Shown: in pieces, positions 3-42,053 of the stretch | Layout of the letters: every line of letters starts with the position of its first letter | Numbering within the stretch: the first letter of the stretch is position 1 | NCBI GenBank assembly: GCA_963712745.1 | Contig: CAVQJC010000020.1 | Location: 320,001 to 384,000, forward strand | Length of the DNA: 64,000 nt | Origin: an uncultured Chloroflexia bacterium | Lineage (GTDB): Bacteria; Chloroflexota; Limnocylindria; Limnocylindrales; CSP1-4 | Direction of reading: 5' to 3' | Translations under genes and position numbers: made by a program | Notes under the pieces: model-generated | The model's database searches: none | Told to the model about the DNA's origin: nothing | Seen by the model: the letters and a program-made list of their open reading frames with translations, nothing else

Positions 3-1310
3 TTCGCGGCCATCGTGGCCGACCTGGAAGCGAAGGGCCAGGGCGAGGCCACGGTGACCTACCGCATCCGTGACTGGCTTGTCAGCCGTCAGCGTCCCTG
101 GGGCACACCTATCCCGGTGGTCTACTGCTCGGCCGACTGCGGCATCGTGCCCCTGCCCGAGGAAGCGCTGCCGGTGGTCCTGCCCGACGACTTCGTCTAC
201 CCCGAGGGCGGCGGAAACGCACTGGAGACGAACGAGGCCTTCCTCAGGACCACCTGTCCGACCTGCGGCGCCGAGGCACGCCGCGAGACCGACACCATGG
301 ACACCTTCGTGGACAGCAGCTGGTACTACTGGCGCTACCTGTCTCCGAAGGCAGACGACGTCCCCATCGACAAGGCACTCAACGAACGCTGGACCCCGGT
401 CGATCAGTACACGGGCGGCGCGGAGCACGCGGTCATGCACCTGCTCTACAGTCGGTTCTTCGCCAAGGCCCTCAACGACATCGGCGTCATCCACGAGCGC
501 GAGCCCTTCAAGCGCCTCTTCAACCAGGGCCAGATCCTTGGGGCCGACGGTGAGCGCATGAGCAAGAGCCGGGGCAACGTGCAGGATCCCGATGAGCTGG
601 TCCATCGCTACGGCGCCGACACGGTGCGCCTCTTCCTGATGTTCATGGGCCCGTGGGACCAGGGCGGCCCCTGGAACCCCCAGGGCATCGAGGGCGTCAA
701 CCGTTTCCTGCGACGCGTGTGGACGGTCGCGCTCGACCCCACCGGTCGGGAGCATGGCGACCCCGATGCGGGCAGGCTGCCGCGGGGCCAGGACCTGGCC
801 GCGGCCCAGAAGGCACTGCGCGTGGGTGCCCACCGAACGCTGCAGGGCGTGACCGACGACCACGAAGGCTTCCGCTGGAACACCATCGTGGCCAAGCTCA
901 TGGAGCTGACCAACCTGCTCATGAAGTACCGCGGGACGCCTGCGGCCGAGACCGATAGCTACGACGAGGCCGTGGACCTGCTGCTGCTGATGCTCGCGCC
1001 GGAGGCTCCGCACATCGCAGAGGAGTTGTGGTCCCGGCGCCTGGCCGCTGCCGGCAAGGACTGGCGCTCGATCCACACCGAGTCGTGGCCGGCCTTCGAC
1101 GAATCGCTCGTGGCCGCCGAGATGATCGAGCTACCGGTCCAGGTCAACGGCAAGCTGCGCGACAAGGTCCAGGTCGTACCGGGCCTGCCGCAGGAGGAGA
1201 TCGAGGCCATCGTCATGGCCCAGCCCAAGATCATCGCCAACCTGGCGGGCAAACAGGTCGTGAAGGTCATCCACGTCGGGGGACGCTTGGTCAACATCGT
1301 CGTCCGATGA
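3..1310 (+). CDS. leuS: Leucine--tRNA ligase, C-terminal part (5' truncated by the window)
   Basis: [53 protein letters not shown]-like RMSKSRGN, C-terminal VQVNGKLR...LVNIVV. The frame is open from position 3. Confidence 0.98.
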
Positions 1311-2284
1311 ACGAGCAGGTGGCGTGCCCTTCCTGCGGCGCGGCGAACTCGGGGGCAAGTGCCTACTGCGGCGCCTGCGGCGCACCACTCCGACCAGCCA
1401 CGGTGCCGCCAGTGCCGTGCTGGAACTGCCGTGCACCGAACCCGCCCGGCCGCGCCTACTGCGGGCAGTGCGGCCAGCACCTGGCCGGGCCCGCGGTGGC
1501 ACCGGCACCGCCGGCGCAGGGCAGCGGTCGCAACCCTGTCCTGCTGGCCCTCGCCGTCGTGCTGGTGTTCTTCCTCGGCATCGCCTCGGTCTTCCTCATC
1601 CTGACCCTCGTCGAGGACCGCGGCGGGACAGGCGTGGGCGCTCCCAGCGCGACCCCGACAGACGAGCTCATCGTCACGCCCGAACCCTCGCTCCTCCCCG
1701 AGGCGACCCCCACGCCGCCTGCGATCCGCACGCCCAAGCCCAAGCGGACTCCGCAGCCGACCCCCACGCTCGGGCCCCCCGGAAGCTTCGTCTGCTACGA
1801 GTCGATGGCGGTGGACGGCCCCGTTGGCTCGAACTGGGATCTGGTGCGTGTCGACTTCCGCACATACCGTGGATATGACCGAGTCATCTACCAGCTCCAG
1901 CGTCGGGGCGACGAACTCGACGGCATCGCCCCGCGCATCGCGGCCCGCCCGGCCATCCCAGGCGAAGGCGAGTTCGTGGGAGAGCCGCCAAGACACCCGG
2001 ATTCCGAGTCGAGGCTCAACGTCGTGCTCGCCAACGGCGTCCGCGACCGCGCGCGCATCGATGGCTACGAGCCGCGTGGCATGAAGATCGTGAAGGCGCT
2101 CTGGACACAGCGCTACCAGTCACACGTCAACTACATCCCGCCGGAGGACGACCCGGCGATGGCGGACGTCGGCGTGCTCTCGTCGGTCGATGTCATCGGC
2201 GATGCCTGCTTCTACCTCCGCGTGGTGGGCTGGGATGGCGAGGGCGACGACAGCGCCTCGGTCTTTGTCGACATCGAGCCATAG
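1307..2284 (+). CDS. Double zinc-ribbon membrane protein with Pro-rich linker and extracellular beta domain (AMIN-like)
   Basis: ATG overlaps the leuS stop (ATGA). CxxC pairs CPSC..CGAC and CWNC..CGQC, hydrophobic helix [23 protein letters not shown]-rich linker, C-terminal domain ending VFVDIEP. Confidence 0.8.
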
Positions 2285-2294
2285 CCACCGGGAC

Positions 2295-2308
2295 TGCCCG
2301 AAGGGTCC
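2295..2308. promoter_or_regulatory. Degenerate TGCCC-N4-GGGCA-like operator
   Basis: TGCCC GAAG GGTCC in the intergenic region, upstream of TAGACT (2334-2339) and ATG 2348. Confidence 0.4.
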
Positions 2309-2347
2309 TTGACGTGGGCGGTGACGGCACCGATAGACTGGTCTTCC

Positions 2348-4585
2348 ATGTCAGGCCTGGTCTGCGCCAACTGCGGCACCCCCAACGCGATCGACGACCT
2401 CTTCTGCGGCGAATGCGGTTCGGCCCTGGATGCGTCGATGGCCGCGCCCGAGCCGGGTGCCGAGACGAGCCCTGCGGCCGAGACTCCGGGCGTCCCCGCT
2501 GAGCCGGAAGGCCCTCCCGCCGCTCCGGCTTCGCTCCCTGCCGACGACTCCCCTCCCCCGCGCTCCCCGGGTGTGCCTGAGACTACGCCGACCGGACCGG
2601 CGGTCACATGCGCCAGCTGCGGGACGCTCAACGAAGCCGACCGCACGTTCTGTCAGCGATGTGGCGAGGAGCTGCCCGACGATGCGGCTCCCCGGGCGGT
2701 AGCTGCGGCCTCCACGACAGCGGGTGCCGCTGGGAACGGACGTGCGGCAAGTGGCGGCGGAGGGCCCGGCCCGGTCGCCATCGCGGGTGGGATCATCGCC
2801 ATCGCATTCATCGGCATCGTGGGTGTCTTCCTGTTCCTCACGCTCAGTGGCTCCGATGACGATGCCGCCGCCAGCCCATCGCTCGAGCCCACCGTCGAGG
2901 CCACGCTCCTGGCCAGCCCCGCTGCGACCGACGAGCCCTCGGCCGAGCCGACCGCAGACGTCACGCCCGAACCGACGGAGCCAGCCACTCCGGAGCCAAC
3001 GGTCGAGCCGACGCCGGAGCCGACGCCCGAACCGACCGCGGAGCCCACGCCTGAGCCCACCGTCGAGCCGACACCCGAGCCCACGGCCAGCCCGGTGCCG
3101 ACTTCGAGTGTCGCGCCATCACCGGCAGCGACCACGAAGCCTGCCGCCGCATCGCTTCAGCCCACGCCCGAGCCGACCTCGGAGCCGACGGCCACGCCCG
3201 AGCCCACGCCCGAGCCGACCTCGGAGCCGCACGCCGAGCCGACGCCCGAGGCGACGCCCGAGCCCACGCCAGAGCCGACCCCGGAGCCGACGGCCACGCC
3301 CGAGCCGACCCCGGAGCCGACGGCCACGCCCGAGCCGACGCCAGAGCCGACCCCGGAGCCGACGGCCACGCCCGAGCCGACCCCGGAGCCGACGGCCACG
3401 CCCGAGCCGACGCCGGAGCCCACGCCAGAGCCGACACCGGAGCCCACGCCCGAGCCGACCCCGGAGCCGACGGCCACGCCCGAGCCGACGCCGGAGCCCA
3501 CGCCCGAGCCGACACCGGAGCCCACGCCCGAGCCCACGCCCGAGCCGACCCCGGAGCCGACGGCCACGCCCGAGCCGACCCCGGAGCCGACGGCCACGCC
3601 CGAGCCCACGTCGCTCACCCGCAAGGCAGCAGAGGACGAACTGCTGGAGCGAGCCGACCCGATCAAGTGTGATCGTTGGCGTTCATCGTCGGACCAGCCC
3701 CTGGAGGCGGGGGCGAAGGGGGCGATCCGGTGTGTCAAGCCCGCGGCTCGCGTGGCGCAGCTGGCTATCTATACGTTCCCCGATGCAGCCGATCTGGCCG
3801 CCTACTGGCCGGTACGACTGAGCCGCATCAGCCCCGAGCCGCCCGAGACGGACACGGCCTGCGAGAACGGCGTAGCCGGTTCTCGTCCCTGGGAAGAGGG
3901 CCTGATCGTCTGCTATGTGCAGGACGGCGTGGCCAAGATCCGGTGGACTGACGATCGGCGGGGGATGTACGGCGTGATCGACGCCACCAGTGACGACCTC
4001 CGGCGACTGTACGGCTGGTGGCGCCGGAACGGACGCGACCTGGGCAAGCCGCTCGACTCCACGAGTACCGGCGCCGCGGGGCCGGCGACCGAGCCGACCG
4101 CACCGGCCGCCCAGTCGAGCCGGTTCACCTGCGAGGACAGCACCCTCGTGATCGACCCGCTCGACCGCAAGTGGAAGATCACTCGACTGAGCTTCCGCCG
4201 CTCGGGCGGTACCGAACGGGTCATCTACCACCTGGAGCAGGAGGGCAAGGCGGCGCCTGCCGACACCTCGGTGGAGGTAAGCCTCTCGCCGATGGGCCAG
4301 CCGAACCTGGTCGGGGGCGACAACGTCGAGCCACCGCTGGCAGGCGACACCGTCGTCTCAGTGCTCTTCGGCCCCGGCATCCGCGATGCCACAGGCCTGG
4401 ACCATTTCGGTCCGCAAGGCGTGGAGATCATCGAGGACCTGTCGATATACCCCATCCAGGGCGGCTACAGCGTCTCGGTCATCGGGGTTACTGGCGACGG
4501 CTGCTATCTGCTGCGCGTGCCGGAGTTCGAGGACCCGCGCGCCAAGGCCACTTCGGCCGAGGTCTACCTGGACGTCGAGCCCTGA
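2348..4585 (+). CDS. Zinc-ribbon membrane protein with long PEPT-repeat stalk and two extracellular domains
   Basis: CANC..CGEC and CASC..CQRC ribbons, TM helix [26 protein letters not shown] repeats, Cys-containing domain ending LYGWW. The C-terminal domain aligns by eye with that of 1307..2284 (RVIY, G[VI]RD, GD[AG]C, ends VYLDVEP). Confidence 0.85.
2935..3610 (+). repeat. Coding tandem repeat, 12/18-bp units (PEPT / PEPTAT)
   Basis: Many copies of cccgagccgacc/ccggagccgacggccacg variants, read as a Pro-Glu-Pro-Thr stalk. Confidence 0.95.
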
Positions 4586-4615: not shown

Positions 4616-6655
4616 TCAGCGCCGGCTGACGATCCCATCCCTTGTCATGCCCGGCGGCACCCCCGGCCCGAGGGTCACCAGGTATGTGCCGGCGACGTCG
4701 TCGAAGGCGGCCGGATCGTCCACGAGCGCGGCCGCGAGCGTTCGCTCGCCCGGCCAGTCGTTGGGCAGGATGAAGACGTAGAGCTCGAAGGAACCGTCCT
4801 CGTCGACCTCGACCATCTTGGGTCGTCCGGCCTCGATACCCCGGTCCCAGGTCAACGTCACGACCGTGCCCGGCCGAAAGTCGTTCCCGGTCACGAGCGT
4901 GGTGTAGCCTGCCGGCCCGTGACCCGGCTCGATGGTGATGCTGGGATCGATGGGGCACGGGACGTTGAAGCGCCCGAGCGAACCGGCCACGACCACGCCA
5001 AGCGTATCGAGTTGCTGCGCTCGAACCGGCACCCGGCGCTCCTCCCGGCCGTTGGCACTCTGGCCGCTTGGCCGGATGACGGTCGAGAACGCACCGTCCC
5101 GGTCAGCCTGGACGCTGAACTGGTCGGTGTCACCGAAGCGAATGAAGACCCGGCCGTTGGGGTAGTAGCCGCTGCCGCCGACGGCGATCTCGTAGGCCTG
5201 CTTCTCACCCGGCGCCTCCGGACCACAGACAGGCGCGACCGTCAGCGGTTGTGCCTCACGGTCGCGGCATGGGACATCGAATGAGGTGGAGGCCTCCAGC
5301 ACGGCCGCCGGCACGGAGACGCCGTCCGTCGACAGGCCGGTCTGGCGCTGGCTGGCCACGATCCGATAGCTGCCGAGTGGCCGCGCCGCCGGCCGGATCC
5401 TGGTGCTGAACTCACCCTTCGCGTCGGCCTTGGCCCGGAAGGTCTCGGCTTCCACGGTCCCCTCGGCGTCGAAGGTGACCGACAGGTTCCCGGGCTCGAA
5501 GCCCGTACCAGAGACATCGAGCGCCAGTCGTCGTGCGCCATCGCCCTTGAGCGCCGGGCGTGCGCAGCGCTGCTTGACTGCGACGTTCGTGGGCTCGCAG
5601 GGGAACTTGAAGCTGACCGAGCGTTGTCGGATCATCGACTCCCCATCGTCGGAGCGGATGCGCAATGAGTAGTTGCCGGGGCCTCGCCGGTAGGGCGAGA
5701 TGGTCAGCACCAGGCGGCCATCATCGTCGGTCCTGGGGTTCCAGAACTCGTGGCTTTGCGGCCCATCCCAGATGACCCACACCCTCTGGTCCTCGTGGAA
5801 GCCGGTGGCAACGACGCGCACGTCCATACGCGCGGGTGGCGAGCCGGATCGGGCGCAATCGGGAAGTACTCGGACGTCCAACTCCGGACAGGGCGTGCGG
5901 AACCAGGTGGAGGCGGTGAACTCACCGTGGAGCCTGACGAAGTACTCGCCGGCAGGGTAGTTGCGGATGTTCACGGTGGTACGCACCTGCCCCTTGCCGT
6001 CGACGGCGACCGTGTCCTGGTGCATGGAGCCTGAGGGCCCCTCGATGCTCAGCTCCACCGACTTGGTGATGAAGCCCTTACCGCTGATCTGCAACTCCAT
6101 CGGCTTCTTGCCGTCCATGGCGGCGTTGCAGCCGGTGTCGGCCGTGGCCGTGGGCCGACAGTAGTTCGCGGCCTCGAAGTCTTCGTGGCCTTGCTTGCCA
6201 CCGCCCTCGGTCTCAGCGGAGAGGCGGTACCAACCTTCGTTCGAGACGACACTGGTGCTGTACGTGGATGGAGCGCCGAAGTCGATGGTCACATTCCGGT
6301 CGAATGTACCCAGCTCATCAACCCGGGCACGGCCGAGGAACAGGCCCACGACCTGGGTGGGCAGCGGAGCCGGCTGCACCCCGGGGCCGGCGCCGACGGG
6401 GCCGATAGCGGCGATAGCCGGTCCGGCCCCTGCCAGGGCTGGCGTGCGGAGCCAGATCTCGACCCGCGTCCCCGGTGTGAAGCCGCTTCCGCGCACACGC
6501 ATCTTGCTCGCGCCGACCGGGGCGATGCACTCCTTGTCGATCCGCACCCGCGGGATGGGCGGGTTCGACTGGGCCTCGACCGGCTCCGGCATGGCCACGT
6601 CGAACGTCGTCACCAGCGCGAGCAGGGCGATGACGACGGCGAGGAGACGCCGCAT
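4616..6655 (-). CDS. Secreted protein with tandem Ig-like beta-sandwich modules
   Basis: Signal peptide MRRLLAVVIALLAL..AEA-like, then about six modules with GxGFxPGxxV...DxxGxF (GSGFTPG, GKGF, ATGF, GTGFEPG, GSGYYPNG, GNDFRPG) separated by FxxPC motifs. Confidence 0.75.
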   Translation of the reverse strand: MRRLLAVVIALLALVTTFDVAMPEPVEAQSNPPIPRVRIDKECIAPVGASKMRVRGSGFTPGTRVEIWLRTPALAGAGPAIAAIGPVGAGPGVQPAPLPTQVVGLFLGRARVDELGTFDRNVTIDFGAPSTYSTSVVSNEGWYRLSAETEGGGKQGHEDFEAANYCRPTATADTGCNAAMDGKKPMELQISGKGFITKSVELSIEGPSGSMHQDTVAVDGKGQVRTTVNIRNYPAGEYFVRLHGEFTASTWFRTPCPELDVRVLPDCARSGSPPARMDVRVVATGFHEDQRVWVIWDGPQSHEFWNPRTDDDGRLVLTISPYRRGPGNYSLRIRSDDGESMIRQRSVSFKFPCEPTNVAVKQRCARPALKGDGARRLALDVSGTGFEPGNLSVTFDAEGTVEAETFRAKADAKGEFSTRIRPAARPLGSYRIVASQRQTGLSTDGVSVPAAVLEASTSFDVPCRDREAQPLTVAPVCGPEAPGEKQAYEIAVGGSGYYPNGRVFIRFGDTDQFSVQADRDGAFSTVIRPSGQSANGREERRVPVRAQQLDTLGVVVAGSLGRFNVPCPIDPSITIEPGHGPAGYTTLVTGNDFRPGTVVTLTWDRGIEAGRPKMVEVDEDGSFELYVFILPNDWPGERTLAAALVDDPAAFDDVAGTYLVTLGPGVPPGMTRDGIVSRR

Positions 6656-8034: not shown

Positions 8035-8154
8035 ACGCCTGCCTCCCGGGACGACTGCCGGGACAGCCCGACCAGGGCCGATTTCAGTGTTCTTTCAGTC
8101 GGCGTCAAGTAGCCGGTGGGAGGCTGGCCAGCGATACGTAGCGAAGAGGAAGCC

Positions 8155-8891: not shown

Positions 8892-9025
8892 CCGGGTTCG
8901 TCCTCGATGACTGACCGGGAGCGACTCTGCGGACGGACTCTCCGGTGTGAGGCTGTAGCGACCGGCGCGCGGCTGTGGCCGCGGCATGTCGTCGCGGCTT
9001 GCGCCCGGTGCCACGAGTCGAGGTG

Positions 9026-25489: not shown

Positions 25490-25577
25490 CGACCTCCTCA
25501 CCGGTCCTCCGACCGACACGCATGGTACGAGACCGCGGCGCGCATCTCCAGCCCCCGGCCTGCTCCTGTCCATGATT

Positions 25578-25636
25578 CCCCCGTTTGGGCGCCGCATCGA
25601 TTCCTCTTCGGGCAGACCCCCATGCCCGTGCGATGG
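25578..25636. promoter_or_regulatory. Phased operator-like sites upstream of the sheath operon
   Basis: CCCCC GTTT GGGCG (25578), TTCCT CTTC GGGCA (25601) and a TGCCC half-site (25623), spaced 22-23 bp. Confidence 0.5.
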
Positions 25637-25733
25637 CCCGCTCGTCCCTTCCGCGAGCCCCATCCGGCTGAGAGCCTGATGCACGACGAGTGCCCGGCCC
25701 AACCGGGCATGCCTGAGTTGGAGGATCACGGGA

Positions 25734-33550: not shown

Positions 33551-33955
33551 ATGGCCAACGCACGTGAGTTCGTCGGTCGTGGCTGGGCGTTCCCGCTGCG
33601 CACCGACGCTAGTGGCGGCGTCGCCCTCGTGAGCCAGGAGCAGGAGGTCGAGGAGTCGATCCGGCTCATCCTGGGCACCGCCTATGGCGAGCGGCCGATG
33701 CGCCCTGAGTTCGGCTGCGCCATCCACGATTTCGTCTACGCCGGTGCGGACGCCAGCACCGCCGCCCAGATCGGCTTCGAGGTGCGGGCCTCGCTCAAGC
33801 GCTGGGAACCTCGCATCGACGTACAGGACGTGACGGTCACTATCGACGCCAACGACCGCAGTCTGCTCTACATCGACATCCGCTACCTCATCAAGACCGC
33901 CAACGACCCACGCAACCTGGTCTTCCCGTTCTACGTGATCCCCGAGGAGGATTGA
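33551..33955 (+). CDS. gp25/GpW-like baseplate protein (Afp9-like)
   Basis: GRGWAFP, ILGT..GERPMRPEFGC, WEPRIDV, NLVFPFY. Confidence 0.95.
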   Translation: MANAREFVGRGWAFPLRTDASGGVALVSQEQEVEESIRLILGTAYGERPMRPEFGCAIHDFVYAGADASTAAQIGFEVRASLKRWEPRIDVQDVTVTIDANDRSLLYIDIRYLIKTANDPRNLVFPFYVIPEED

Positions 33956-33956: not shown

Positions 33957-35906
33957 ATGTCCCTGCAGGCGCCGAACCTCGACGATCGCCGCTTCCAGGA
34001 CCTGGTCGACGATGCCAAGCGCCTGGTCCAGCAGCGCTGCCCCGAGTGGACCGACCACAACGTCTCCGATCCGGGCGTCACGCTCATCGAGACCTTCGCC
34101 TGGATGACCGACCAGCTGCTCTACCGCCTCAACCGTGTCCCGGAGCGCCACTACGTCAAGTTCCTCGAGCTCATCGGCGTCCGGCTCTTCCCGCCGGCGG
34201 CCGCGCGCGTCGAGGTGACCTTCTGGCTGTCGGGTCCGCAGCCCGAGGCCGTGCTCATCGCGGCCGGCACCCAGGTCGCCACGCCACGCTCACAGCACGA
34301 CCAGGCCATCGTCTTCGAGACGCAGCGTGACCTCCCCATCGTGCCTACCGCGTTCGCACATGCGCTCTCGAGCGTCGGCCAGGGAGCCTACCGCGTCCAC
34401 GATGATGCCCTGGCTCTGGACAACAGCTTCTACTGCTTTGACGCGGTGCCCAAGCCAGACGATGCCCTCTACGTCGGCCTCGATCAGCCTGCGCCCTCGT
34501 GCGCGGTGCGCATCCGCCTGTCCTGTCGCATCGAAGGCGTCGGCGTGGACCCGGACTTCCCGCCCCTGGTGTGGGAGGCCTGGAACGGCGAAGGCTGGGC
34601 TCGCTGCGAGGTCGATGGCGACGGCACCGGCGGGCTCAACCGGGACGGCGACATCACGCTCCATCTGCCCGAGGAGCACGAGGCATCGGTCATCGAGGGC
34701 CAGCATGCCGGCTGGGTCCGGGCGCGCGTCGTGCCGCCGGTGGCGAACCAGCCGGTCTATAGCGCCTCTCCTGAGATCCTCTCGGTCGGCGCGTTCACGG
34801 TCGGCGGCACGGTCCGCGCCAGCAACTCCGAGCGCGTAGTCGACGAGGTCTTGGGTACGACCGACGGCGCACCCGGCGACGCCTTCGCGCTCAAGCGCAG
34901 CCCGGTGCTGCCGTCGGACGAGCCGCTGACGGTGGAGGTCTCCTCCACTGACGGCTGGCAGGTGTGGACGCAGCCGGAGGCCCGCAGCTTTGCCGGCAGC
35001 GGTCCCGAGGACCGCCACGTGATGCTCGATGCGGTGGCCGGTGAGATCCAGTTCGGCCCGGCCGTCCGCCTGGCCGATGGCAGCATCGCGCAGCACGGCG
35101 CGGTGCCAGCCGCCGGCTCGACCGTCCGTGTTCCGGTCTACCGTACCGGTGGCGGCGCACGCGGCAACGTGACCGCCCGCGCCATCAGCGTGCTCAAGTC
35201 GTCCATCCCCTACGTAGCCCGGGTGGAGAACCGCCGGCCAGCATCGGGCGGCGTGGACGGTGAGGACATCGAGGACGCGAAAGTCCGCGGCCCCGTGCTG
35301 CTCCGCACCCGTGACCGGGCCGTCACCGCGGAGGATTTCGAGCATCTCGCGCGCGAGGCCGCCCCCGAGCTGGCACGCGTCCACTGCGTCGTCGCCGGCG
35401 ACGGGGTCGATGCCGGCGGCGTGCGCGTGCTGGTGGTGCCATCGGTGCCGACGGGCGGGGAGATGCCGTTCCAGGCCCTGCTGCCGAGCGAGGCCACGCT
35501 CGAACGCGTGGCCCGTCGTCTCGACGAGAGCCGCCTTCTGGGCACACGTGTGGTCGTCGAGCCGCCGGTCTATCGCGGTGTCACCGTGGTCGCCCGTCTG
35601 CGGGCGGCCAGCCGCTTCGACCCCGAACGCCTGCAGCAGTCCGCGACCGAGGCGCTCTTCGGCTACTTCCATCCAACCGAGGGCGGGCCCGATGGCGACG
35701 GCTGGCCCTTCGGCCGCCCGGTGCTGGCGGGCGAGGTGTTCGCTGTGCTCGGGCGCCTGCGCGGTGCCGAGCTGGTGGAGGAGGTCAAGGTCTTCGGAGC
35801 CGACCCCATCACTGGTGAGCGGGGCAAGGCCACCGACCGGCTCGAAGTCGAGCCGCACGCGCTCGTGTTCAGCTACGAGCACCAGGTCATGGCGGTGGCA
35901 TCGTGA
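33957..35906 (+). CDS. Baseplate J-like wedge protein (Afp11-like)
   Basis: PNLDDRRFQDLV...PEWTDHNVSDPGVTLIE, YRTGGG.RGNV, RAVTAEDFE, GWPFGR. Confidence 0.96.
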   Translation: MSLQAPNLDDRRFQDLVDDAKRLVQQRCPEWTDHNVSDPGVTLIETFAWMTDQLLYRLNRVPERHYVKFLELIGVRLFPPAAARVEVTFWLSGPQPEAVLIAAGTQVATPRSQHDQAIVFETQRDLPIVPTAFAHALSSVGQGAYRVHDDALALDNSFYCFDAVPKPDDALYVGLDQPAPSCAVRIRLSCRIEGVGVDPDFPPLVWEAWNGEGWARCEVDGDGTGGLNRDGDITLHLPEEHEASVIEGQHAGWVRARVVPPVANQPVYSASPEILSVGAFTVGGTVRASNSERVVDEVLGTTDGAPGDAFALKRSPVLPSDEPLTVEVSSTDGWQVWTQPEARSFAGSGPEDRHVMLDAVAGEIQFGPAVRLADGSIAQHGAVPAAGSTVRVPVYRTGGGARGNVTARAISVLKSSIPYVARVENRRPASGGVDGEDIEDAKVRGPVLLRTRDRAVTAEDFEHLAREAAPELARVHCVVAGDGVDAGGVRVLVVPSVPTGGEMPFQALLPSEATLERVARRLDESRLLGTRVVVEPPVYRGVTVVARLRAASRFDPERLQQSATEALFGYFHPTEGGPDGDGWPFGRPVLAGEVFAVLGRLRGAELVEEVKVFGADPITGERGKATDRLEVEPHALVFSYEHQVMAVAS

Positions 35907-36454
35907 GGACCGGCACGGTCAAGGGTCTGGCCAGCCCACATCCGCTGGTCGAGGGCCTGCCCGGCCTGTACCAGGAGGACGACTTCACGCGTCGCTGGCT
36001 CTCGGCCATGGACGATGCGCTGGCGCCGGTGTTCCTGGCGCTCGACAGCCTGCCCGCCTACCTCGACCCCGCCGTCACGCCCGAGGACTTCCTCGATTGG
36101 CTGGCCGGCTGGGTCGGTGTGCTGCTCGACGAGAACTGGCCTCTCGAACGCCGCCGCGCCTTCGTGGCCCAGGCCGCCGAGCTCTACCGCCTGCGAGGCA
36201 CCGCCACCGGCCTCGCCGCCCACGTCCGCGTCTTCACCGGTGGCCAGGTCGAGATCGTCGAGAGCGGCGGTGCAGCCTGGTCGAGCAAGAGTGGAGGCAA
36301 GCTGCCGGGTGGACCGGACTACCGCATCGAGGTGCGCGTGAGCGGCACCGACTCGCCGGTAGACCAGTCACGCCTGGACGCGCTGGTGGCCAGCGCCAAA
36401 CCGGCCCACCTGGTGCACAGCGTGCGCGTGGCCGGGGCCGCGCCTTCGTCGTAG
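35903..36454 (+). CDS. Phage tail protein I-like baseplate protein
   Basis: LPGLYQEDDF, YLDP..TPEDFLDWLAGWVG, LYRLRGT..GL, KPAH. Confidence 0.92.
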   Translation: MRTGTVKGLASPHPLVEGLPGLYQEDDFTRRWLSAMDDALAPVFLALDSLPAYLDPAVTPEDFLDWLAGWVGVLLDENWPLERRRAFVAQAAELYRLRGTATGLAAHVRVFTGGQVEIVESGGAAWSSKSGGKLPGGPDYRIEVRVSGTDSPVDQSRLDALVASAKPAHLVHSVRVAGAAPSS

Positions 36455-36533: not shown

Positions 36534-37679
36534 GTGCCGATGATCCGGTGTAAGAAGTGCGGGACGCTCAACCAGTCCGACGCTGCCTTCTGCGGCCAGT
36601 GCGATGCCTACCTCGAGTGGAGCGGCGAGAAGGTCGACGACGAGGGCGAGCCGCTCGCGTCCTCGCCGCCGGCCGCTGCATCCCCGCCACCGGGCACACC
36701 ACCTCCGCCGGCCGCGACGCCACTGGGGCCGCCGGGGGTGCCTGGGGCCGTGCCCCCGGCCCGACCGGCCGCGCGGCCCGCTTCGGAGGCGACTCCACCG
36801 GCCTCGCGAGCTGGCGAGCCCAAGTCGCGCCAGCCGGAGAAGGGCGCCACCGAACCACAGCGCAAGGCCAAGCCACCGCAGCGCACCAAGCCCCAGAAAC
36901 CCAAGCCTGGGCAGCGCGTCTGCGCCAACTGCGGCAGCGGCAACGACCCGGGACGCAAGTTCTGCCGACAGTGCGGCAGCGGCCTCGACCTGGCTCCGCT
37001 CGAGCCACCGACGCCCGAGTCCAGGCGCGGCCCCTCGCTGCTCTCGCGCCTGTTCCGCCGGGGCAAGCAGGAGGCCTACATGGCCGGGCAGCGCCCGGAG
37101 TCGATGCTCTCGGCACCGTCGCGCTGGCGCCCCGGATCAAGCGCCATGGTCTTCGGCCTGCTGGCCGCAGTCGGGCTCGGCAGCCTGGCCTCGTACTGGT
37201 ACATGCCGGAGGTCAGGAACGGCGTGGATGATGTCGTGCGCATGGTCCAGAACCAGATCGGGGGCCGGGCCAGGGTCAACGTGACGAACGCGACGGGGCG
37301 CTCCCGCCCGGGCTTTCCCGCGCTCAACGTCATCGACGGTGGCAGCAACACCTACTGGGTCGGCCCACGCGGCGCCGGAGGCCGCTGGCAGATCGACTTC
37401 GAGCTGCAGCGCCCGTCCGACCTGCTACAGCTCAACCTGGACAGTGGCGCCGACGGGGAGCAGTTCGAGAAGCTGGGCCGTCCGTTCGAGATCCAGCTGC
37501 GGGCCGACGGCGAGCTCAGCCCCGTGTACGAGCTCAAGGACACCAAGGACCAGCAGGTCGTCCACATCGACATCCAGGACGTCAGGGAACTGCGCCTCAT
37601 CGTGCGTTCGCAATACCGCGGCCTCGACGGCGGTACCGACATCGCCATCCGGGAGGTCGCGTTCTTCGGTCCCCAGTGA
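36534..37679 (+). CDS. Zinc-ribbon/Pro-rich/TM protein with C-terminal discoidin-like domain (CisA-like membrane adaptor candidate)
   Basis: CKKC..CGQC and CANC..CRQC, TM helix MVFGLLAAVGLGSLA, C-terminal NVIDG..NTYW...IAIREVAFF. It is the last gene of the baseplate operon. Confidence 0.8.
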   Translation: MPMIRCKKCGTLNQSDAAFCGQCDAYLEWSGEKVDDEGEPLASSPPAAASPPPGTPPPPAATPLGPPGVPGAVPPARPAARPASEATPPASRAGEPKSRQPEKGATEPQRKAKPPQRTKPQKPKPGQRVCANCGSGNDPGRKFCRQCGSGLDLAPLEPPTPESRRGPSLLSRLFRRGKQEAYMAGQRPESMLSAPSRWRPGSSAMVFGLLAAVGLGSLASYWYMPEVRNGVDDVVRMVQNQIGGRARVNVTNATGRSRPGFPALNVIDGGSNTYWVGPRGAGGRWQIDFELQRPSDLLQLNLDSGADGEQFEKLGRPFEIQLRADGELSPVYELKDTKDQQVVHIDIQDVRELRLIVRSQYRGLDGGTDIAIREVAFFGPQ

Positions 37680-37688: not shown

Positions 37689-40600
37689 TCAGCCCGAGAG
37701 GGACAGGCCCAATTCGGCCAGCGTGCTCTCGTAGTTGGAGCGTGCCGAGGTCGCGGCCGCCTTGTCGCCGGCGGCGTCGCGGGCCTCGATGAGCGTTCGC
37801 CACAACGGATCGTGGAAGCGGTCGCGGGCCAGGCCATCCACGCACACCGTCGCGGCCGCCGCAGGGTCTCCCCGCTCGAGCAGCGCGCGCGCAAGCATGG
37901 CGGCGGCCTCGACCGCCTCCGCCCGAGCAGACTCCCGCCGACCCACGATCCAGTCTTCGGGTCCGGCCTCGGGGATGAGCTCCCCGCGACACCGCTCCAG
38001 CGCCGTCTGGCTCCAGCGCTCCACGTCATCCCGGTCACCGCGGATGAGAGCGGCCCGGGCCGCGGCCAGCGCCTCCTCGAAACCCACCAGGTCGATGAGC
38101 GCGCCCGGCGGCAGGGCCAGGCGATAGCCGTCCGCGTCCCGCGGCACCAGTCGGAAGCCCCCGCGCGAAGCTCCTGGCTCGAGCACGCGGCGCAGCGTGG
38201 CGATGGCTACGTGCAGGTTGCGTGCCGCCGCATCCGGGTCGGAGCCGGGCCAGAGCGTCTCCATGATGGTCTCGCGATGGACCACCCGCCCGGCCTCGAG
38301 CGCCAGCAGGTAGAGCAACGTGCGCACGCGCGGCCGGATGGCGTTGAGATCCACCGGCTCGCCCCCGATCTCGAGGCGGAATGACCCGAACAACGCCAAT
38401 CGCGCCGGAGGCTCCGGGGCCGGCTGTGGCGATGACTCGTTGGCGGTCACGTCGTCCGAGCGGGGCGTCGTCTTGCGCGCGGCCGCATCGGCAGCCGCGA
38501 TGGCCGGGACCCGCAGTCCATAGCCGGGCAGGACCTGTCCGGCCAGCCGCTCGGCCTCTGCCTTGTCGCCCCGTGCGAGCGCGCTGGCCAGTCGCGCTAC
38601 CAACCCCGGAAGCGGCGCTGCCGACGATCGCGCGAGCTGCTCGGCCTCACGGGCCGTGGCCGCTGCGCTGGGGACAACTGTCCAAGCCTCGGCCAGCGCC
38701 ACCACGGCCGCCATCCAGGCCTCCAGTTCGGTGGCTTCGAGGCTGTGCAGTGTCGTGCGCGCTTCGGCCGCGAGGGTGGCCGCGTCGAACCGGTCGTCGA
38801 GGTCGGCGGACCGGGCCCTCGCCACCAGCACACCCCAGGCACGTGCCGCGCGCGCCAGGACCGCGCCCCAGCGGTCGCCAAGTGCCCGGGCCGTGTCTTC
38901 CAGGCGTGCGGCCTCGTGCAGGTGGTCGATACGACCGCTCAGCGCCAGGAGTGAGCGCCCCAGCCGGGCCAGCCACTCGAGGCCCTGTCCCTCGGCGGAC
39001 CCGATGGCGCCGTTGAGGTCGACCACGCCCTCTTCGTCACCACCGAGCAGGGCCAGCACGCCGCGCGTGGCCTGGGCAGCGCAGGCGACAGGACCCTCCG
39101 TGCCGCTGTCCTCCTCCAGTCGCGCCAACTGCCGGCGAGCGGCGAGCAGGTCGCCGCCGAGGATGAGGATCAGCGCCTCCACCAGTCCGGCCATCGCGCC
39201 GCTGCCGTCGAGGTACCGCTGCGCCGTACCGGGACCGCCGGTCACGGCCAGCCTCAGCACAGCCCATGGCGCCGTCCCCGGCGCGGGTCGCCAGCCGGGA
39301 TCCGGATGCAGCCAGGTGAGCAGCTCGGCACGCTCTCGACGGGCAGCTCCCGCGGCGGCCTCGCTTCGGACGTCTGCCGCCAGGGCACCGTAGGCTTTGG
39401 CAGCCTCGCCGAAGCGGCCTTCGGAGCGAAGCCTGCGCGCGCCGGCCAGCGCCAGCCAGGGATCGTGGCCGAGCGGTTCCTGGGCGTGGATCCCCAGCCA
39501 GCGCAAGGGCTCTTCAGCGATGGCTGGGCCCTCGTCACTGAGGATCTGCGCCACCATGTCCCAGGCCTCGGCGCGGATGTACGCCTCCAGCGCCTCCGCG
39601 GGCGTACCCTCCCCGGCCAGCAGATCGCCGGCAGCCACGAACCGAGCCCTGGCGCCTTCCTCACCGACCTCGCTTACCAGCACGCCCTGGAGATGGGAGC
39701 GGAAGACCTCGTGGTAGCGATAGCTGCCGGATTCATCGACACGAGTCGTGAACAGACAGCGCCGCTCCAGGTCCTCGAGGATGGCACCGCTGCCGGTGCG
39801 GCCGAGCAGCCGGTCACAGATGTGGGCGCTGAGCCGCCCCGAGACGGAGGTATGGACCATGAACCCCCGCAGCTCGTCAGGCACACGATCGAGCGCGTTC
39901 TGAGCCAGGTATTCGCGCGCCAGCCGGCTGCGAGGACCCAGCGAGCTGAGCACTCGCCGTCGCTCGTCGGCCGGCCGCCCGTGCGTGGCCAGGTGGAACA
40001 GCTGCAGGCCGGCGGCCCAGCCCTCGGTCCAGCGCGCCAGGCGCGCCAGCTCTTCGGGCGCCATGGGCTCGTGGTAGTGGTCGCGGAAGAGACGCTCTAC
40101 CTCCCACGTGCGTAGGCGTAGGTCGTCGGCGTCGATCTCGAGGAGCTCACCGGACAGGCGCAGCCGCGAAAGGTTGAAGGCCGGCTGCGTGCGCGACGCC
40201 GCCAGCACGTGCAAGCCCGCCGGCAGGTGATCGAGCAGCCGCTCGAGTGTCGCTTCGGCGGGGCTGCCCTCGAGCGCGTGCAAGTCGTCGATGACGAGGA
40301 GGGCTCGGGCCGGATCCCAGGCCTCCAACCCGGTGAGCAGGTCGTCGATGTCGGTCCAGGCTGCCGAGCGGCCTTCGGTCCAGGGCTCCAGGGCGCCGGC
40401 CAGCTGGGCCACGCATGCGGTGGGCGTCGTGTCCCAGCGATCACAGCGGACCCAGGCCACCGGCGCGTCGACGCCCTCGGCGAAGCGTGCCATGAGCGTT
40501 GTCTTGCCACTGCCGGGCGGTGCCACCACCAGCGCCAGGCGGTGGTCCCAGATCGTCTCCAGACGGGCGTTGAGGCGCTCCACCGGCATCGAGCCGTTTC

Positions 40601-40721
40601 GAGGCAGGGCAGCCTGGAGCCGTGCCCGGCCTGGCGGCGGTCCCCCGTTCTGCGAATGCTTCGCCCGTGACAACGGACTGGTCTCTCGATCGACTGCACG
40701 CGTGGGTGGGTGAGCCGTCAT
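37689..40721 (-). CDS. Large ATP-binding regulator: MalT-like STAND NTPase with C-terminal winged HTH + BTAD (SARP) module
   Basis: Walker A APPGSGKTT, Walker B LVIDDLH, TEGWAAGLQL, YRYHEVFR, C-terminal LFGSFRL..LLYLL..LWP..NLHVAI..LRRVL. Confidence 0.9.
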   Translation of the reverse strand: MTAHPPTRAVDRETSPLSRAKHSQNGGPPPGRARLQAALPRNGSMPVERLNARLETIWDHRLALVVAPPGSGKTTLMARFAEGVDAPVAWVRCDRWDTTPTACVAQLAGALEPWTEGRSAAWTDIDDLLTGLEAWDPARALLVIDDLHALEGSPAEATLERLLDHLPAGLHVLAASRTQPAFNLSRLRLSGELLEIDADDLRLRTWEVERLFRDHYHEPMAPEELARLARWTEGWAAGLQLFHLATHGRPADERRRVLSSLGPRSRLAREYLAQNALDRVPDELRGFMVHTSVSGRLSAHICDRLLGRTGSGAILEDLERRCLFTTRVDESGSYRYHEVFRSHLQGVLVSEVGEEGARARFVAAGDLLAGEGTPAEALEAYIRAEAWDMVAQILSDEGPAIAEEPLRWLGIHAQEPLGHDPWLALAGARRLRSEGRFGEAAKAYGALAADVRSEAAAGAARRERAELLTWLHPDPGWRPAPGTAPWAVLRLAVTGGPGTAQRYLDGSGAMAGLVEALILILGGDLLAARRQLARLEEDSGTEGPVACAAQATRGVLALLGGDEEGVVDLNGAIGSAEGQGLEWLARLGRSLLALSGRIDHLHEAARLEDTARALGDRWGAVLARAARAWGVLVARARSADLDDRFDAATLAAEARTTLHSLEATELEAWMAAVVALAEAWTVVPSAAATAREAEQLARSSAAPLPGLVARLASALARGDKAEAERLAGQVLPGYGLRVPAIAAADAAARKTTPRSDDVTANESSPQPAPEPPARLALFGSFRLEIGGEPVDLNAIRPRVRTLLYLLALEAGRVVHRETIMETLWPGSDPDAAARNLHVAIATLRRVLEPGASRGGFRLVPRDADGYRLALPPGALIDLVGFEEALAAARAALIRGDRDDVERWSQTALERCRGELIPEAGPEDWIVGRRESARAEAVEAAAMLARALLERGDPAAAATVCVDGLARDRFHDPLWRTLIEARDAAGDKAAATSARSNYESTLAELGLSLSG

Positions 40722-40779
40722 TGTGAGACCGCGCCGCCGAGCAGTCCAGCCTCTTTGTGCGCGGGCCCGCGTGCCGACA

Positions 40780-40806
40780 TGCCCTTTAGGGCAGTCGCCG
40801 CTGCCT
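40780..40806. promoter_or_regulatory. Perfect palindromic operator TGCCC-TTTA-GGGCA plus a half-site 22 bp downstream
   Basis: Sites at 40780-40793 and TGCCT at 40802, between the divergent regulator and DUF4157 genes. Confidence 0.65.
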
Positions 40807-40862
40807 CCGACGTCGCCTGCAGGGACCTACCGCCGGACCCAGCGCACGCGCATCCTCGTCCC

Positions 40863-42053
40863 ATGTCGCGACACGACCTGGAGCGGATGGCGGCCGAGTC
40901 CAAGCGCGCCACGAAGCCCCACCACAAACCAACCCCCGAGGACGCCGACCGGGAACCCGGTGCGGACCTACGCAGCGCCGTCGGCAACGCCGGCATGGGC
41001 CGCCTGCTGGACCCGTCGGTCGGCAGCATCATCGAGGCCGAGCTCGGCGGCGGCAAGCCGCTGGCAACGACCCCCGGAGCACAGCGCTCCGCGCGCCGTG
41101 CGGACGACGATGTGCGCATCCACGATGACGGAACTGCCGCGCAGCTCAGCCGCGAGTTGGGTGCTGTGGCTTTCACCTACGGGCGGGACGTGTTCCTGGC
41201 CGGCAACGCCCCGGACCTGGGCAGTGAGGCAGGCCGGGCCATGCTCCGACACGAGCTCACGCACGTCGATCAGCAGGCGGAATCCGGCACCACGCGCCCG
41301 AAACGGGTGAGTTCCCCCGGCAGTCCGGCCGAGAAACAGGCCACCCGAGCCCAGGCCGGTACGCCCGTGACTGGTGCGGTCGGATCGGCCGGCGCGAGCG
41401 CCGTGCATCGGCAGGAGGAAGAGGAAGAGATGCAGCTGATGCGCGCGGACACCGTGCATCGGCAGGAGGAGCTGCCCGAAGAGGAGCTGGCCACGATGCC
41501 GGCCGACACCGTGCATCGGCAGGAGGAAGAGGAAGAGGAGATGGCCATGGCGATGCCGGCCGACACCGTGCATCGGCAGGAGGAAGAGGAAGAGATGCAG
41601 CTGATGCGCGCGGACACCGTGCATCGGCAGGAGGAGCTGCCCGAAGAGGAGCTGGCCATGATGCCGGCCGAAACCGTGCATCGGCAGGAAGTCGCAGAGC
41701 AGACCACTGCAGCCGCGCCAGCACCCGCGAATGCGGCCCTGGCGGCCCTCTTCAACGGAACGGTGACCGAGAAGCTGCGGACGGCACAGAGCTCCGTGGG
41801 GCAAGAGACGCCCGACTATCAGGCCGCACTCGCCGCCCTGACGGACGCGAGGAACGGTATCCGGGCCGTCGCGGACACGTACAGCGAGAGTGACCCGTCG
41901 CTCTTCACCGAGCTGGCGCTGCTCTACAACTCGACCTCCCTCGCCATCGCCAGGACGGAGCAACGCCTGGGCATCACTTCGGACCAGCCGCTGTCTGGCA
42001 CCATCGGCACTGTCATCAACATGGCTGTGCACGTCGGCCCCACCCTCCACTAG
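40863..42053 (+). CDS. DUF4157 (eCIS core domain) protein with VHRQE-acidic repeats
   Basis: LRSAVGNAGMGRLL, DVRIHDD..AAQL..LGAVAFTYGRDVF, HELTHVDQQ, six VHRQE repeats. Start is 40863 or 40887. Confidence 0.9.
   Translation: MSRHDLERMAAESKRATKPHHKPTPEDADREPGADLRSAVGNAGMGRLLDPSVGSIIEAELGGGKPLATTPGAQRSARRADDDVRIHDDGTAAQLSRELGAVAFTYGRDVFLAGNAPDLGSEAGRAMLRHELTHVDQQAESGTTRPKRVSSPGSPAEKQATRAQAGTPVTGAVGSAGASAVHRQEEEEEMQLMRADTVHRQEELPEEELATMPADTVHRQEEEEEEMAMAMPADTVHRQEEEEEMQLMRADTVHRQEELPEEELAMMPAETVHRQEVAEQTTAAAPAPANAALAALFNGTVTEKLRTAQSSVGQETPDYQAALAALTDARNGIRAVADTYSESDPSLFTELALLYNSTSLAIARTEQRLGITSDQPLSGTIGTVINMAVHVGPTLH
41401..41690 (+). repeat. Coding tandem repeat, ~51-57 bp units (VHRQEEEEE-M-x-M-x-ADT)
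   Basis: Six copies of ccgtgcatcggcagga with variable Glu runs. Confidence 0.92.

Follow-up and report, generated by a model that had tools for sequence, protein, structure and literature searches.

A locus for a contractile injection system (CIS) was analysed in a window of 64,000 nucleotides (G000:C20:320001-384000; about 70% G+C), which was taken from a metagenome-assembled genome (MAG) of 4.22 Mb in 20 contigs. The locus was read as an intact CIS of subtype IId (the 'Streptomyces-type') on a Limnocylindria-like Chloroflexota chromosome, for which we infer that it acts in the cytoplasm and carries a giant cargo; the probability of this reading as a whole was put at about 0.62. As a machine it is an unexceptional representative of a lineage already known, and a 3095-aa candidate cargo is its one unusual feature. 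Genes were called from the frame bias of third-position GC (GC3) and named with Pfam and NCBIfam. In a species-level genome collection, 578 sheath relatives were found, and the counts of loci given below rest on the best 80 of the 578, a set that contains no Roseiflexus row.

The injection system and its host

The sheath and the baseplate J protein carried the class assignment. Residues 1-507 of the sheath matched the Protein Data Bank (PDB) chains 8bky_A and 8bl4_V with E-values of 1.1e-205 and 1.6e-202, respectively, and the next-best system in the PDB was the haloarchaeal CIS 9ezm (4.9e-125). The values were 1e-46 to 1e-53 against Pvc2 and Afp, 1e-32 to 1e-53 over Pvc, Afp, tCIS and AlgoCIS overall, and about 1e-16 against pyocin and T4. 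Residues 1-647 of baseplate J matched 9gtp_1K at 2e-222, with three matches in total. The entries 8BKY, 8BL4, 9GTP and 9GTS are models of the S. coelicolor and S. venezuelae CIS, and these systems belong to subtype IId. By sequence, the sheath and baseplate J of the window side with the S. coelicolor CIS (CIS-Sc) and not with Afp/PVC, the type VI secretion system (T6SS), pyocins or phages; this assignment was made from the E-values against the PDB. A first-pass annotation of the window had proposed a Streptomyces-like type, and the full-length matches of both proteins to the solved Streptomyces systems bear this out.

The CIS core occupies 19111-37679 of the window. It is arranged in two divergent arms, a cap/ATPase arm on the minus strand and a structural arm on the plus strand, with the following genes.

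19111..21252, minus strand: Cis15/Afp15-type AAA+ ATPase (Pfam WHD 4.3e-28, AAA 2.9e-24; 56 of the 80 loci)
21249..22031, minus strand: Cis16/Afp16 cap, the tail terminator (Pvc16_N/DUF4255 7e-41; 68 of the 80 loci)
25734..27257, plus strand: sheath, Cis2 (Phage_sheath_1 2.5e-25)
27311..27769, plus strand: tube, Cis1a (Phage_T4_gp19 5e-31; 77 of the 80 loci)
27766..28191, plus strand: h141, at the phage tail-chaperone position (76 of the 80 loci)
28350..30257, plus strand: gene at the tape-measure position, 635 aa (eCIS_core 2.9e-12)
30270..30695, plus strand: second tube paralogue, Cis1b, tube initiator layer (Phage_T4_gp19 3.7e-30)
30695..31405, plus strand: Cis7/Afp7 tube initiator with a LysM-like tail (CIS_tube 3.8e-24, weak LysM)
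31402..33150, plus strand: VgrG-like spike, Cis8 (Phage_base_V 1.9e-26)
33161..33547, plus strand: PAAR tip, Cis10 (PAAR_motif 9.6e-13; 19 of the 80 loci)
33551..33955, plus strand: gp25-like, Cis9 (GPW_gp25 3e-24)
33957..35906, plus strand: baseplate J, Cis11 (Baseplate_J 6.7e-18; PDB match 9gtp_1K as above)
35903..36454, plus strand: Cis12, P2 gpI-like wedge (Tail_P2_I 5e-19; TIGR02242 4.9e-31; partial CIS12_fam below the cut-off)
36540..37679, plus strand: CisA-type bitopic protein, ZnR3 (Pfam zinc-ribbon families; NADase_discoid 2.9e-13; transmembrane (TM) helix at aa ~201-219)

The core genes aligned end to end with those of the nearest relative (locus L002 of genome G002) at 41-95% identity; hence, the CIS appears intact, and no core gene looks broken. 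The genes cis1a, cis1b, cis2, cis7, cis8, cis9, cis11, cis12, cis15 and cis16 are all present, in an order common to L002-L081, the best 80 relatives, which come from Chloroflexota, Dormibacterota and Actinomycetota. The whole genome holds a single sheath, and a tblastn search of it turned up no duplicate for any of the CIS structural genes. The complete parts list that had been given for the locus (sheath, two tubes, initiator, VgrG, PAAR, gp25, J, tail-I, ATPase and cap) was thus recovered, with every part present, intact and in place. A second, weak Baseplate_J match (E 1.2e-8) was seen in a 348-aa frame at G000:C4:246870-247100, and this region showed no tblastn similarity to the baseplate J of the window.

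The best 80 relatives were found in MAGs labelled Chloroflexia, Limnocylindria or Chloroflexota, Dormibacterota and Acidimicrobiia, and in a few Actinomycetes (Kutzneria, Cellulosimicrobium). LeuS, which is encoded at the left edge of the window, was 85% identical to that of G002 (Chloroflexia label) and 69% identical to that of G003 (Limnocylindria label), and the identity was 52% for G005 (Acidimicrobiales), 48% for G004 (Dormibacterota) and 42-46% for G001 (Kutzneria). In the sheath tree, a quick maximum-likelihood run with 82 rows, the window was joined to L002 with a support of 100 within a four-row Chloroflexota clade (99). This clade lay inside a 37-row Chloroflexota/Dormibacterota group (93), and the Actinomycetota fell outside. 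The LeuS identities and the nesting of the sheath among Chloroflexota rows confirmed the earlier suggestion of a Chloroflexota-like host, which on this sequence evidence is a Limnocylindria-like member of the phylum. The sheath of L018, a locus with a Verrucomicrobiia label, nests with a Chloroflexota row in a Chloroflexota clade (support 99), which suggests that the gene was transferred or that the contig was mis-binned. Among 24 other genomes sampled from the host's own genus, a sheath of about 80% identity was present in four and a 40% relative in one; the spread of the CIS in the genus is patchy, and these genomes are mostly incomplete.

The block in G002 has the same neighbours, with leuS on one side and three luciferase-like monooxygenases and comEA/comEC on the other. 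A 59-codon copy of the leuS 3' end was seen in G002 (L098:13547-13723) beyond the DUF4157 gene, at the far end of the CIS block, with the intact leuS at the near end. The copy is 85% identical at the protein level to LeuS of the window, and it looks like an old attachment-site duplication that brackets the whole block of about 40 kb. No such duplicate was found in the window on the far side of the locus, where 42053-42184 was compared.

The missing parts of the machine were examined at the level of the genome and of the locus. Scans of the whole genome, which is 84.55% complete, gave no match to the HK97 capsid, TerL ATPase, Peptidase_S74, IcmF/TssM or Phage_lysozyme families, in line with the first-pass statement that capsid, terminase, lysis genes and T6SS membrane complex are missing. 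No family of the Afp13 fibre or the Afp14 tape measure was found among the genes of the locus by scans that used no dedicated Afp13/Afp14 model, and no ClpV-type gene was found there with Pfam. A T6SS was rejected on the lack of an IcmF-related TssM in the genome and of a ClpV-type gene at the locus. An extracellular CIS of the Afp/PVC/AlgoCIS kind was rejected on the lack of fibre, Afp14-type and lysis genes, together with a sheath match about 150 orders of magnitude weaker than that to CIS-Sc. A defective prophage tail or an R-type tailocin would account for the structural genes, all of which descend from the contractile tails of phages and are ordered as in P2 (sheath, tube, small gene, long gene, hub, spike, wedge). 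However, the sheath matched pyocin and T4 at only about 1e-16 as against 1e-205 for the Streptomyces CIS, and the Pvc16 cap, the AAA+ ATPase and the DUF4157 genes are hallmarks of CIS. Furthermore, capsid, terminase, Peptidase_S74 fibre and phage lysozyme were not found in the genome, and the same chromosomal site, from leuS to comEA/comEC, is occupied in a relative with 85% LeuS identity. The prophage/tailocin and T6SS readings were rejected because of the placement of the sheath and baseplate J and the missing head, lysis and TssM families, and a phage remnant was considered extremely improbable.

Two genes between the tubes fill positions that are expected in phage tails. The small protein h141 was 55-86% identical across 76 of the 80 loci, actinomycetes included; like h285 and MP778 (see below), it has no Pfam or NCBIfam family. 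The 635-aa gene encodes an Ala/Pro/Ser-rich and mostly low-complexity protein with HELVH at aa ~454 and ELLLDRERSG at the C-terminus. Both flanks of the slot, h141 and the second tube, are present in 54 loci, and in every one of them an open reading frame (ORF) of 490-1183 aa (median 716) lies between the two. The C-terminal ELLxDRERxG motif was present in 52 of these 54 ORFs, and HExxH/DUF4157 in only 20. By position, h141 and the 635-aa gene correspond to the tail chaperone and the tape measure of P2-like tails. Streptomyces CIS are described as lacking a conventional tail fibre (Afp13), a typical tape measure (Afp14) and ClpV (PMC10066040). The earlier claim that a canonical tape measure is missing held in so far as no such family was found, but a conserved 635-aa gene fills its position. 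This gene matters, for the literature gives the family no tape measure, yet the particles have a uniform length; published particle lengths are 268 nm for S. coelicolor, 238 nm for Calidithermus and 365 nm for D. aquatilis (PMC12237407, PMC12998442).

An insert separates the two arms and contains three further genes.

22134..22781, plus strand: collagen-like small protein 1 (Pfam Collagen 4.1e-7; hydrophobic signal-like N-terminal helix)
23001..23363, plus strand: collagen-like small protein 2, start uncertain (GxY run; C-domain shared with the first)
23393..25729, minus strand: MP778, membrane-anchored or exported, with the zinc-protease-like motif HEVGHILRLGH read from the sequence

Among the 80 loci, the collagen-like proteins occur solely in the window and in L002, which has three copies, and MP778 has a counterpart (43% identical) in L002 alone. 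Signal-like or anchor helices are carried by collagen-like protein 1 and by MP778. The collagen-like proteins were tried as fibres and rejected, given the signal-like N-terminus of the first and the confinement of both to the window and L002. Because of its signal-peptide-like N-terminus, collagen-like protein 1 is more likely exported than part of the baseplate as a fibre. The statement that there is no tail fibre stood as regards Peptidase_S74, which was not found in the genome; the two collagen-like genes between the arms are an addition to the earlier list.

Membrane partner and companion genes

The gene at 36540-37679 starts 86 nt past the end of Cis12, and its product has the layout of a membrane anchor. 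The predicted topology runs from a zinc ribbon, a Pro-rich linker, a second zinc ribbon and a basic patch to a TM helix and an outer domain of 155 aa. This outer domain matched the NCBIfam model NADase_discoid, a glycan-binding discoidin type, with 50 bits against a cut-off of 38. Full-length homologues were found right after Cis12 in G002 (E 1.1e-103), G003, G005, G004 and Kutzneria (E 2.9e-21, aa 46-378). In the class of Kutzneria, a match was obtained in 12 of the 301 genomes sampled, and it adjoins Cis12 in 11 of 13 loci. The family is hence present in Chloroflexota, Dormibacterota, Acidimicrobiia and Actinomycetes. In alignment A3 (15 rows), C4, C7, C18, C21, C128, C131, C142, C145, W27, D266 and W273 were invariant. 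In the published description of Sco4242/CisA, the N-part is unstructured and cytoplasmic, a putative Zn domain rich in Cys immediately precedes the TM helix, and the C-domain, of about 150 aa, is sugar-related (PMC10020575; PMC12237407). CisA is needed for contraction and is predicted to contact Cis11 in S. coelicolor (PMC12237407). The gene of the window fits a CisA-type anchor when set beside Sco4242 by this published architecture, in agreement with the bitopic membrane partner that had been proposed for the system. A complex prediction for Cis11 and the cytosolic 200 aa of the CisA-type protein gave a weak score, 0.36 against 0.00 for the best of three controls; of 80 solved complexes, 58 passed the mark for this score, as did 2 of 110 mismatched pairs, and at scores of 0.60 or less it was reached by 7 of the 80 solved complexes and by both passing mismatches. 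In the prediction runs, at least 33% of the contacts agreed and the predicted local distance difference test (pLDDT) of the partner was at least 46.

The remaining accessory genes lie outside the two arms.

1307..2284, plus strand: ZnR1, zinc-ribbon single-TM protein (Pfam DZR 7.6e-9; TM helix at aa 73-91 in the translation from 1328)
2309..4585, plus strand: ZnR2, two zinc ribbons, TM helix, PT-rich linker and outer domain (Pfam DZR, Zn_Ribbon; TM helix at aa 161-179)
4616..6655, minus strand: exported protein with repeated Ig-like domains (signal-like helix at aa 23-41; weak MG2, CoaZ and PGS Ig-like matches)
6661..7983, minus strand: TM440, PapD-like N-domain, TM helix, PT linker and small C-domain (Cep192_D3 6.6e-8; TM helix at aa 225-243)
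8116..8829, plus strand: LuxR/GerE regulator, counterpart of sco4263/SlpR (Pfam GerE 1e-11)
37689..40721, minus strand: STAND-type ATPase fused to SARP, 1010 aa (Trans_reg_C and BTAD, Pfam)
40710..42053, plus strand: DUF4157/eCIS_core protein, 447 aa, candidate adaptor or cargo (eCIS_core 1.1e-18)

Several candidate membrane adaptors had been listed in the first-pass annotation, and a single one, the CisA-type protein, was left as specific to the CIS. ZnR1 was rejected as an adaptor and is probably not CIS-specific: the stop codon of leuS and the ATG of ZnR1 at 1307 overlap (ATGA), ZnR1 is translationally coupled to leuS, and no match to it was found in the 80 related loci. The left edge of the CIS, which had been set at 1307, is this ATG and belongs with leuS rather than with the CIS. 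ZnR2 has a counterpart of 51% identity at the same place in G002. Its C-terminal outer domain belongs to a dispersed family with four paralogues elsewhere in the genome (contigs C1, C6, C15 and C17); ZnR2 was also rejected as an adaptor, and its tie to the CIS is weak. The exported Ig-like protein, whose start at 6655 was placed from an MRRLL motif, gave matches in 4 of the 80 loci and in G002.

TM440 was found in 27 of the 80 loci, usually adjoining LuxR, and its Cep192_D3 match scored 33 bits against a cut-off of 27. Sco4256 is described with a PapD-like N-domain, a single TM helix and a variable C-domain, in a family that is also present in Chloroflexi IId regions (PMC10020575, PMC10066040). 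TM440 is likely the counterpart of this Sco4256-type CIS effector, matched by published architecture. The LuxR gene occurs in 34 of the 80 loci, and in L002 its product is 80% identical and the gene abuts Cis15. The STAND-SARP gene is found in seven of the 80, all labelled Actinomycetota and five of them Acidimicrobiaceae, and in G002 (64% identical); moreover, of 13 actinomycete loci, four have SARP-like C-terminal matches next to the CisA-like gene. Both regulators are recurrent companions of the CIS. In G002, an IS21-like pair (IstA-like and IstB-like, named by eye) and other genes were seen between LuxR and the TM440 homologue (L097:659-3102), and the two genes are 130 bp apart in the window. 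The 447-aa DUF4157 protein has a HELTH metallopeptidase-like core, which is followed by about six acidic ADTVHRQEEEEE repeats, with variants. Its gene is one of two eCIS_core genes in the genome and has a 65% identical counterpart at the same place in G002. The accessory set had been called unusually rich. Instead, LuxR, the PapD-like single-TM protein, the CisA-like protein, DUF4157 and SARP recur in related loci of four phyla, and most of the set is the standard subtype IId kit with published Streptomyces counterparts.

The giant protein as candidate cargo

The largest ORF of the cluster and an orphan gene lie between LuxR and the ATPase arm.

8975..18262, plus strand: giant 3095-aa candidate cargo (leader motif, Annexin 9.5e-30, cyclase-like and JAMM-like modules)
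18306..19163, minus strand: h285, orphan

The first feature of the giant protein is a leader, LQRLAGNAAV, at aa ~110. An Ala/Pro/Gly/Ser-rich disordered part follows at aa ~300-600, and a charged part at aa ~600-1150; the disordered N-terminus contains LRTLQRLAGNAAVADL. Annexin repeats were matched in four stretches at aa ~1200-1650, and a hydrophobic hairpin lies at aa ~1759-1805. The protein has no signal peptide, its first hydrophobic stretch being at aa ~280. No eCIS_core/DUF4157 domain was found in it, and distances of 10 and 22 kb separate it from the nearest genes of the DUF4157 type. When aa 600-3095 were used as a query, no match was obtained at E <= 1e-5 in any of five genomes (G002 and the CIS-bearing congeners G022-G025). 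The giant gene and h285 are an insertion or a lineage-specific retention, since LuxR abuts Cis15 in L002. The gene of h285 shares a short overlap with the end of the ATPase gene and is convergent with the giant gene. No match to h285 was found in the 80 loci, and the clusters returned by an Atlas search were all viral, 'hypothetical' and below threshold (scores of at most 0.90); as a guess from position, h285 might serve the giant as an immunity or helper protein.

When the C-terminal part of the giant (aa 2100-3095, 996 aa) was searched against 1.84 billion representatives, 474 relatives were obtained at E <= 1e-3. Among the matches listed, most cover the cyclase-like module at aa ~2120-2395, and the proteins range from 112 to 3131 aa. 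In a 37-row alignment of this module, R66, K84, K91, D97, D192, D194 and H227 were invariant. The invariant K, D and H are presumably the known catalytic residues of such cyclases. The Pfam family Anthrax_toxA matched 8 of the 37 rows, all below the cut-off, and 14 of the 15 PDB matches of the module profile were ExoY-like, EF or CyaA (best 6.3e-6). The segment alone gave only a chance match in phmmer against the PDB, the ATP synthase gamma subunit at E 0.25. The AlphaFold2 (AF2) model of the module had a pLDDT of 87.7, and Foldseek ranks 1-23 were all CyaA, EF or ExoY (E 6.5e-7 to 6.7e-3). The model suggests that aa ~2120-2395 have an ExoY/CyaA/EF-like cyclase fold. Moreover, two copies of one domain lie at aa ~2440-2600 and ~2900-3070. 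In its 24-row family, E38, H91, H93 and D115 were invariant and S110 was nearly so, a pattern of E...HxH...S..D for a zinc site on an MPN fold that we take to be the JAMM/MPN+ motif. The AF2 model of the domain had a pLDDT of 84.8, and its best Foldseek matches, which were weak (E 7.5e-3 to 0.1), were almost all BRCC36, CSN5 and Rpn11, and both copies may be called JAMM/MPN+-like on this predicted fold.

The leader was searched in all six frames with the pattern L[QRH][RKQ]x[AIVLSTM]GNx[AS][VTALIM]. The LQRxAGNxAV leader occurred once in the 4.2-Mb genome, namely in the giant; in the 80 CIS loci (1.19 Mb), by contrast, it was found 35 times, spread over 28 of them. HExxH followed the leader in 20 of the 35 cases, mostly about 100 residues downstream in DUF4157 proteins, and the others were larger ORFs without HExxH. 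One such ORF overlaps an annexin match in L007, and another holds a cyclase-like match in L038; in the IId loci L007, L009 and L038, leader ORFs that bear annexin or cyclase lie in the same slot as the giant. In AlgoCIS, cargo loading needs a disordered, system-specific N-terminal loading sequence and the Afp15-type AAA+ ATPase, and DUF4157 is dispensable (10.64898/2026.05.27.728243). The giant protein is probably CIS cargo. The alternative is an independent polymorphic toxin or surface protein whose insertion between LuxR and the ATPase arm was a matter of chance. It would explain why the giant is missing in L002/G002, where LuxR abuts Cis15, and in G022-G025, why it has no DUF4157 domain and why its modules are found in hundreds of other proteins. 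However, the leader is unique to the giant in the genome yet common in CIS loci, and the leader ORFs of L007, L009 and L038 share its slot. In addition, the disordered N-terminus, charged stretch, hairpin, C-terminal enzymes and status as the largest ORF resemble Tme and Sle1 as these are described (PMC11126660; PMC13277306), and a signal peptide is lacking. An independent giant was thus considered unlikely, and the protein is kept as a probable cargo of the CIS.

The giant was compared with the known effectors. It resembles Tme of S. davawensis (PMC11126660) and Sle1/Sle2 of S. lividans (PMC13277306), as described in these sources, in being the largest ORF with a disordered or charged N-part and hydrophobic helices, in its swappable C-terminal enzyme modules and in its association with DUF4157 proteins. 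Unlike Tme, it has no DUF4157 domain of its own, and the slot upstream of the baseplate is held by the 635-aa DUF4157 gene; unlike Sle1, it has no small DUF4157 gene adjacent to it. Its annexin, cyclase-like and JAMM-like modules also differ from those described for Tme and Sle. A place in the Tme/Sle1 group was rejected, since DUF4157 linkage and position disagree, although the general build and the shared leader agree. In predicted fold and N-terminal catalytic-site motif, aa ~2120-2395 are like ExoY, the MARTX ExoY module, CyaA and anthrax EF. They are unlike ExoY, CyaA and EF in their identity (12-18%), a Pfam score below the cut-off, low TM-scores and their setting in a CIS-linked giant of a soil bacterium, and the cyclase activity is putative. 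The giant shares with AlgoCIS Cgo1/Cgo2 a disordered, system-specific N-terminus, a variable C-terminal effector part, with a DUF4157 domain between the two being optional, and an encoded Afp15-type ATPase (10.64898/2026.05.27.728243), but it belongs to another CIS lineage and has another leader sequence.

Direction of action and relation to known systems

The proposed working of the machine follows the studied systems. By analogy with Streptomyces, the particles would assemble free in the cytoplasm. The AAA+ ATPase would load unfolded cargo into the tube via the disordered N-terminal leader, by analogy with the work on AlgoCIS and Streptomyces. Upon a stress or developmental signal, the Cis11 baseplate may meet the cytosolic zinc-ribbon/linker part of the CisA-like protein at the membrane. 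Contraction of the sheath would then drive membrane-active cargo into or across the producer's own membrane; death of the producer is the known outcome in Streptomyces and would be expected here by analogy. The addition made by this genome would be the leader-tagged 3095-aa cargo beside the Sco4256-like protein, with a body like that of a tape-measure effector and four modules, namely the annexin repeats, the cyclase-like fold and the two JAMM-like folds.

Several points weigh against this reading of the locus. The model for a cytoplasmic, self-directed mode is borrowed by analogy from Streptomyces and Roseiflexus. Proteins with an action in eukaryotic cells are the best-known carriers of annexin, ExoY-like and MPN+ modules, and for this reason a self-killing device fits poorly. 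Every genome-wide absence is provisional, given the completeness of the MAG. The homology of the CisA-type protein was shown to the post-Cis12 proteins of Kutzneria and other Actinomycetes rather than to SCO4242 itself, and TM440 was set beside SCO4256 by description rather than by sequence. The sheath of G290, one of the actinomycetes sampled, scored 2.3e-227 against 8bky but differs from it, which shows that G290 is not S. coelicolor. The link of the giant to the CIS rests on its position and one short motif, because the closest relative and four CIS-bearing congeners lack the protein; it also lacks DUF4157 and is not at the Tme position. Among its modules, the cyclase-like one scored 21.7 bits against a Pfam gathering threshold of 25 and had low global TM-scores (~0.33). 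For the JAMM-like model, no Foldseek match was obtained at E <= 0.001, and its profile A2 found nothing meaningful among the PDB sequences (best E 0.39).

The same machine may act in the other direction, either by T6SS-like outward firing from a CisA-docked position or by release upon death, with the toxin delivered into neighbours, possibly eukaryotic grazers. The second-best solved sheath, that of the haloarchaeal 9ezm (4.9e-125), belongs to a membrane-anchored system described as an archaeal T6SS with contact-dependent antagonism (PMC11566945), and because of this neighbour the outward direction was kept, though as unlikely. The annexin repeats (9.5e-30), the ExoY/CyaA/EF-like fold and the MPN+-like domains of the giant, as well as the glycan-binding discoidin type of the CisA-like outer domain, also speak for outward action, and for the Roseiflexus CIS the targeting of other organisms was left undecided by its authors (PMC12998442). 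On the other side, fibre, lysis cassette and a TssM-type complex were not found in this genome, and the closest relatives studied by experiment are described as cytoplasmic systems whose particles contract when the cell lyses and which kill their producer (PMC10066040, PMC12237407, PMC12998442). Furthermore, the 474 relatives of the cyclase module vary widely in size and build, as expected of a polymorphic-toxin module, which can also hit bacteria. A bolder extension was considered quite improbable. In it, LQRxAGNxAV is a portable IId loading tag across Chloroflexota, Dormibacterota and Actinomycetota, the giant is a toxin recruited with this tag, and a part of the 'cytoplasmic' IId systems would use docking by CisA to fire outward and poison other organisms instead of killing the producer alone. 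The cytoplasmic, self-directed mode remains the preferred, inferred mode.

Against the known systems, the locus is closest to CIS-Sc (sco4242-sco4263), the sheath and baseplate J being full-length close relatives. Both systems have two tube paralogues, Cis7, Cis8, Cis9, Cis11, Cis12, Cis15, Cis16, LuxR, a PapD-like single-TM protein and, right after Cis12, a bitopic protein with Zn-ribbon, TM helix and sugar domain. As for CIS-Sc, no Afp13, canonical Afp14 or ClpV was found at the locus, and a PAAR gene is present as in S. venezuelae. The locus differs from CIS-Sc in its Chloroflexota host, in the collagen-like and metalloprotease-like exported proteins between the arms, in the STAND-SARP regulator and in the 3095-aa extra cargo candidate. 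Chloroflexota systems of subtype IId, for which a cytoplasmic mode is proposed, are already in the literature: a Chloroflexota/Deinococcota clade of cytoplasmic CIS is described for Roseiflexus, Thermogemmatispora, Calidithermus and Deinococcus (ISME J 2026, PMC12998442). The window shares with the Roseiflexus clade the subtype, the phylum, the Streptomyces synteny and the proposed cytoplasmic mode. Unlike Roseiflexus, which according to the authors of that paper has no close cisA homologue, the window has a clear CisA-type gene. A full-text literature search returned no paper on contractile injection with Limnocylindria, and, among the matches listed, none ties a CIS to annexin or describes a cyclase-toxin cargo of this kind.

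Two observations concern the genes beyond the CIS block. Three tandem luciferase-like monooxygenase paralogues lie right after the block at 42184-45157; they are kept in G002, and the genome has many further copies of the family. At 46083-50333, a single frame of 1416 aa joins ComEC (Competence and metallo-beta-lactamase) to a C-terminal HolA domain (aa 1282-1382). This frame may be a real ComEC-HolA fusion and not two genes in frame, because the same continuous match (aa 1-1405, 69% identity) was found in G002.

The machine is thus one more host record for a lineage that has been characterised structurally and genetically in Streptomyces. The clear CisA-type anchor in Chloroflexota, Dormibacterota and Acidimicrobiia extends a known firing factor beyond the actinomycetes. 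Three findings deserve to be retained: the leader motif, the giant candidate cargo and the conserved gene that fills the tape-measure slot. The module set of the giant sharpens the question of what IId systems target. If the leader is truly a loading signal, the cargo of these systems could be listed from sequence, and the leader would provide a handle for loading foreign proteins.

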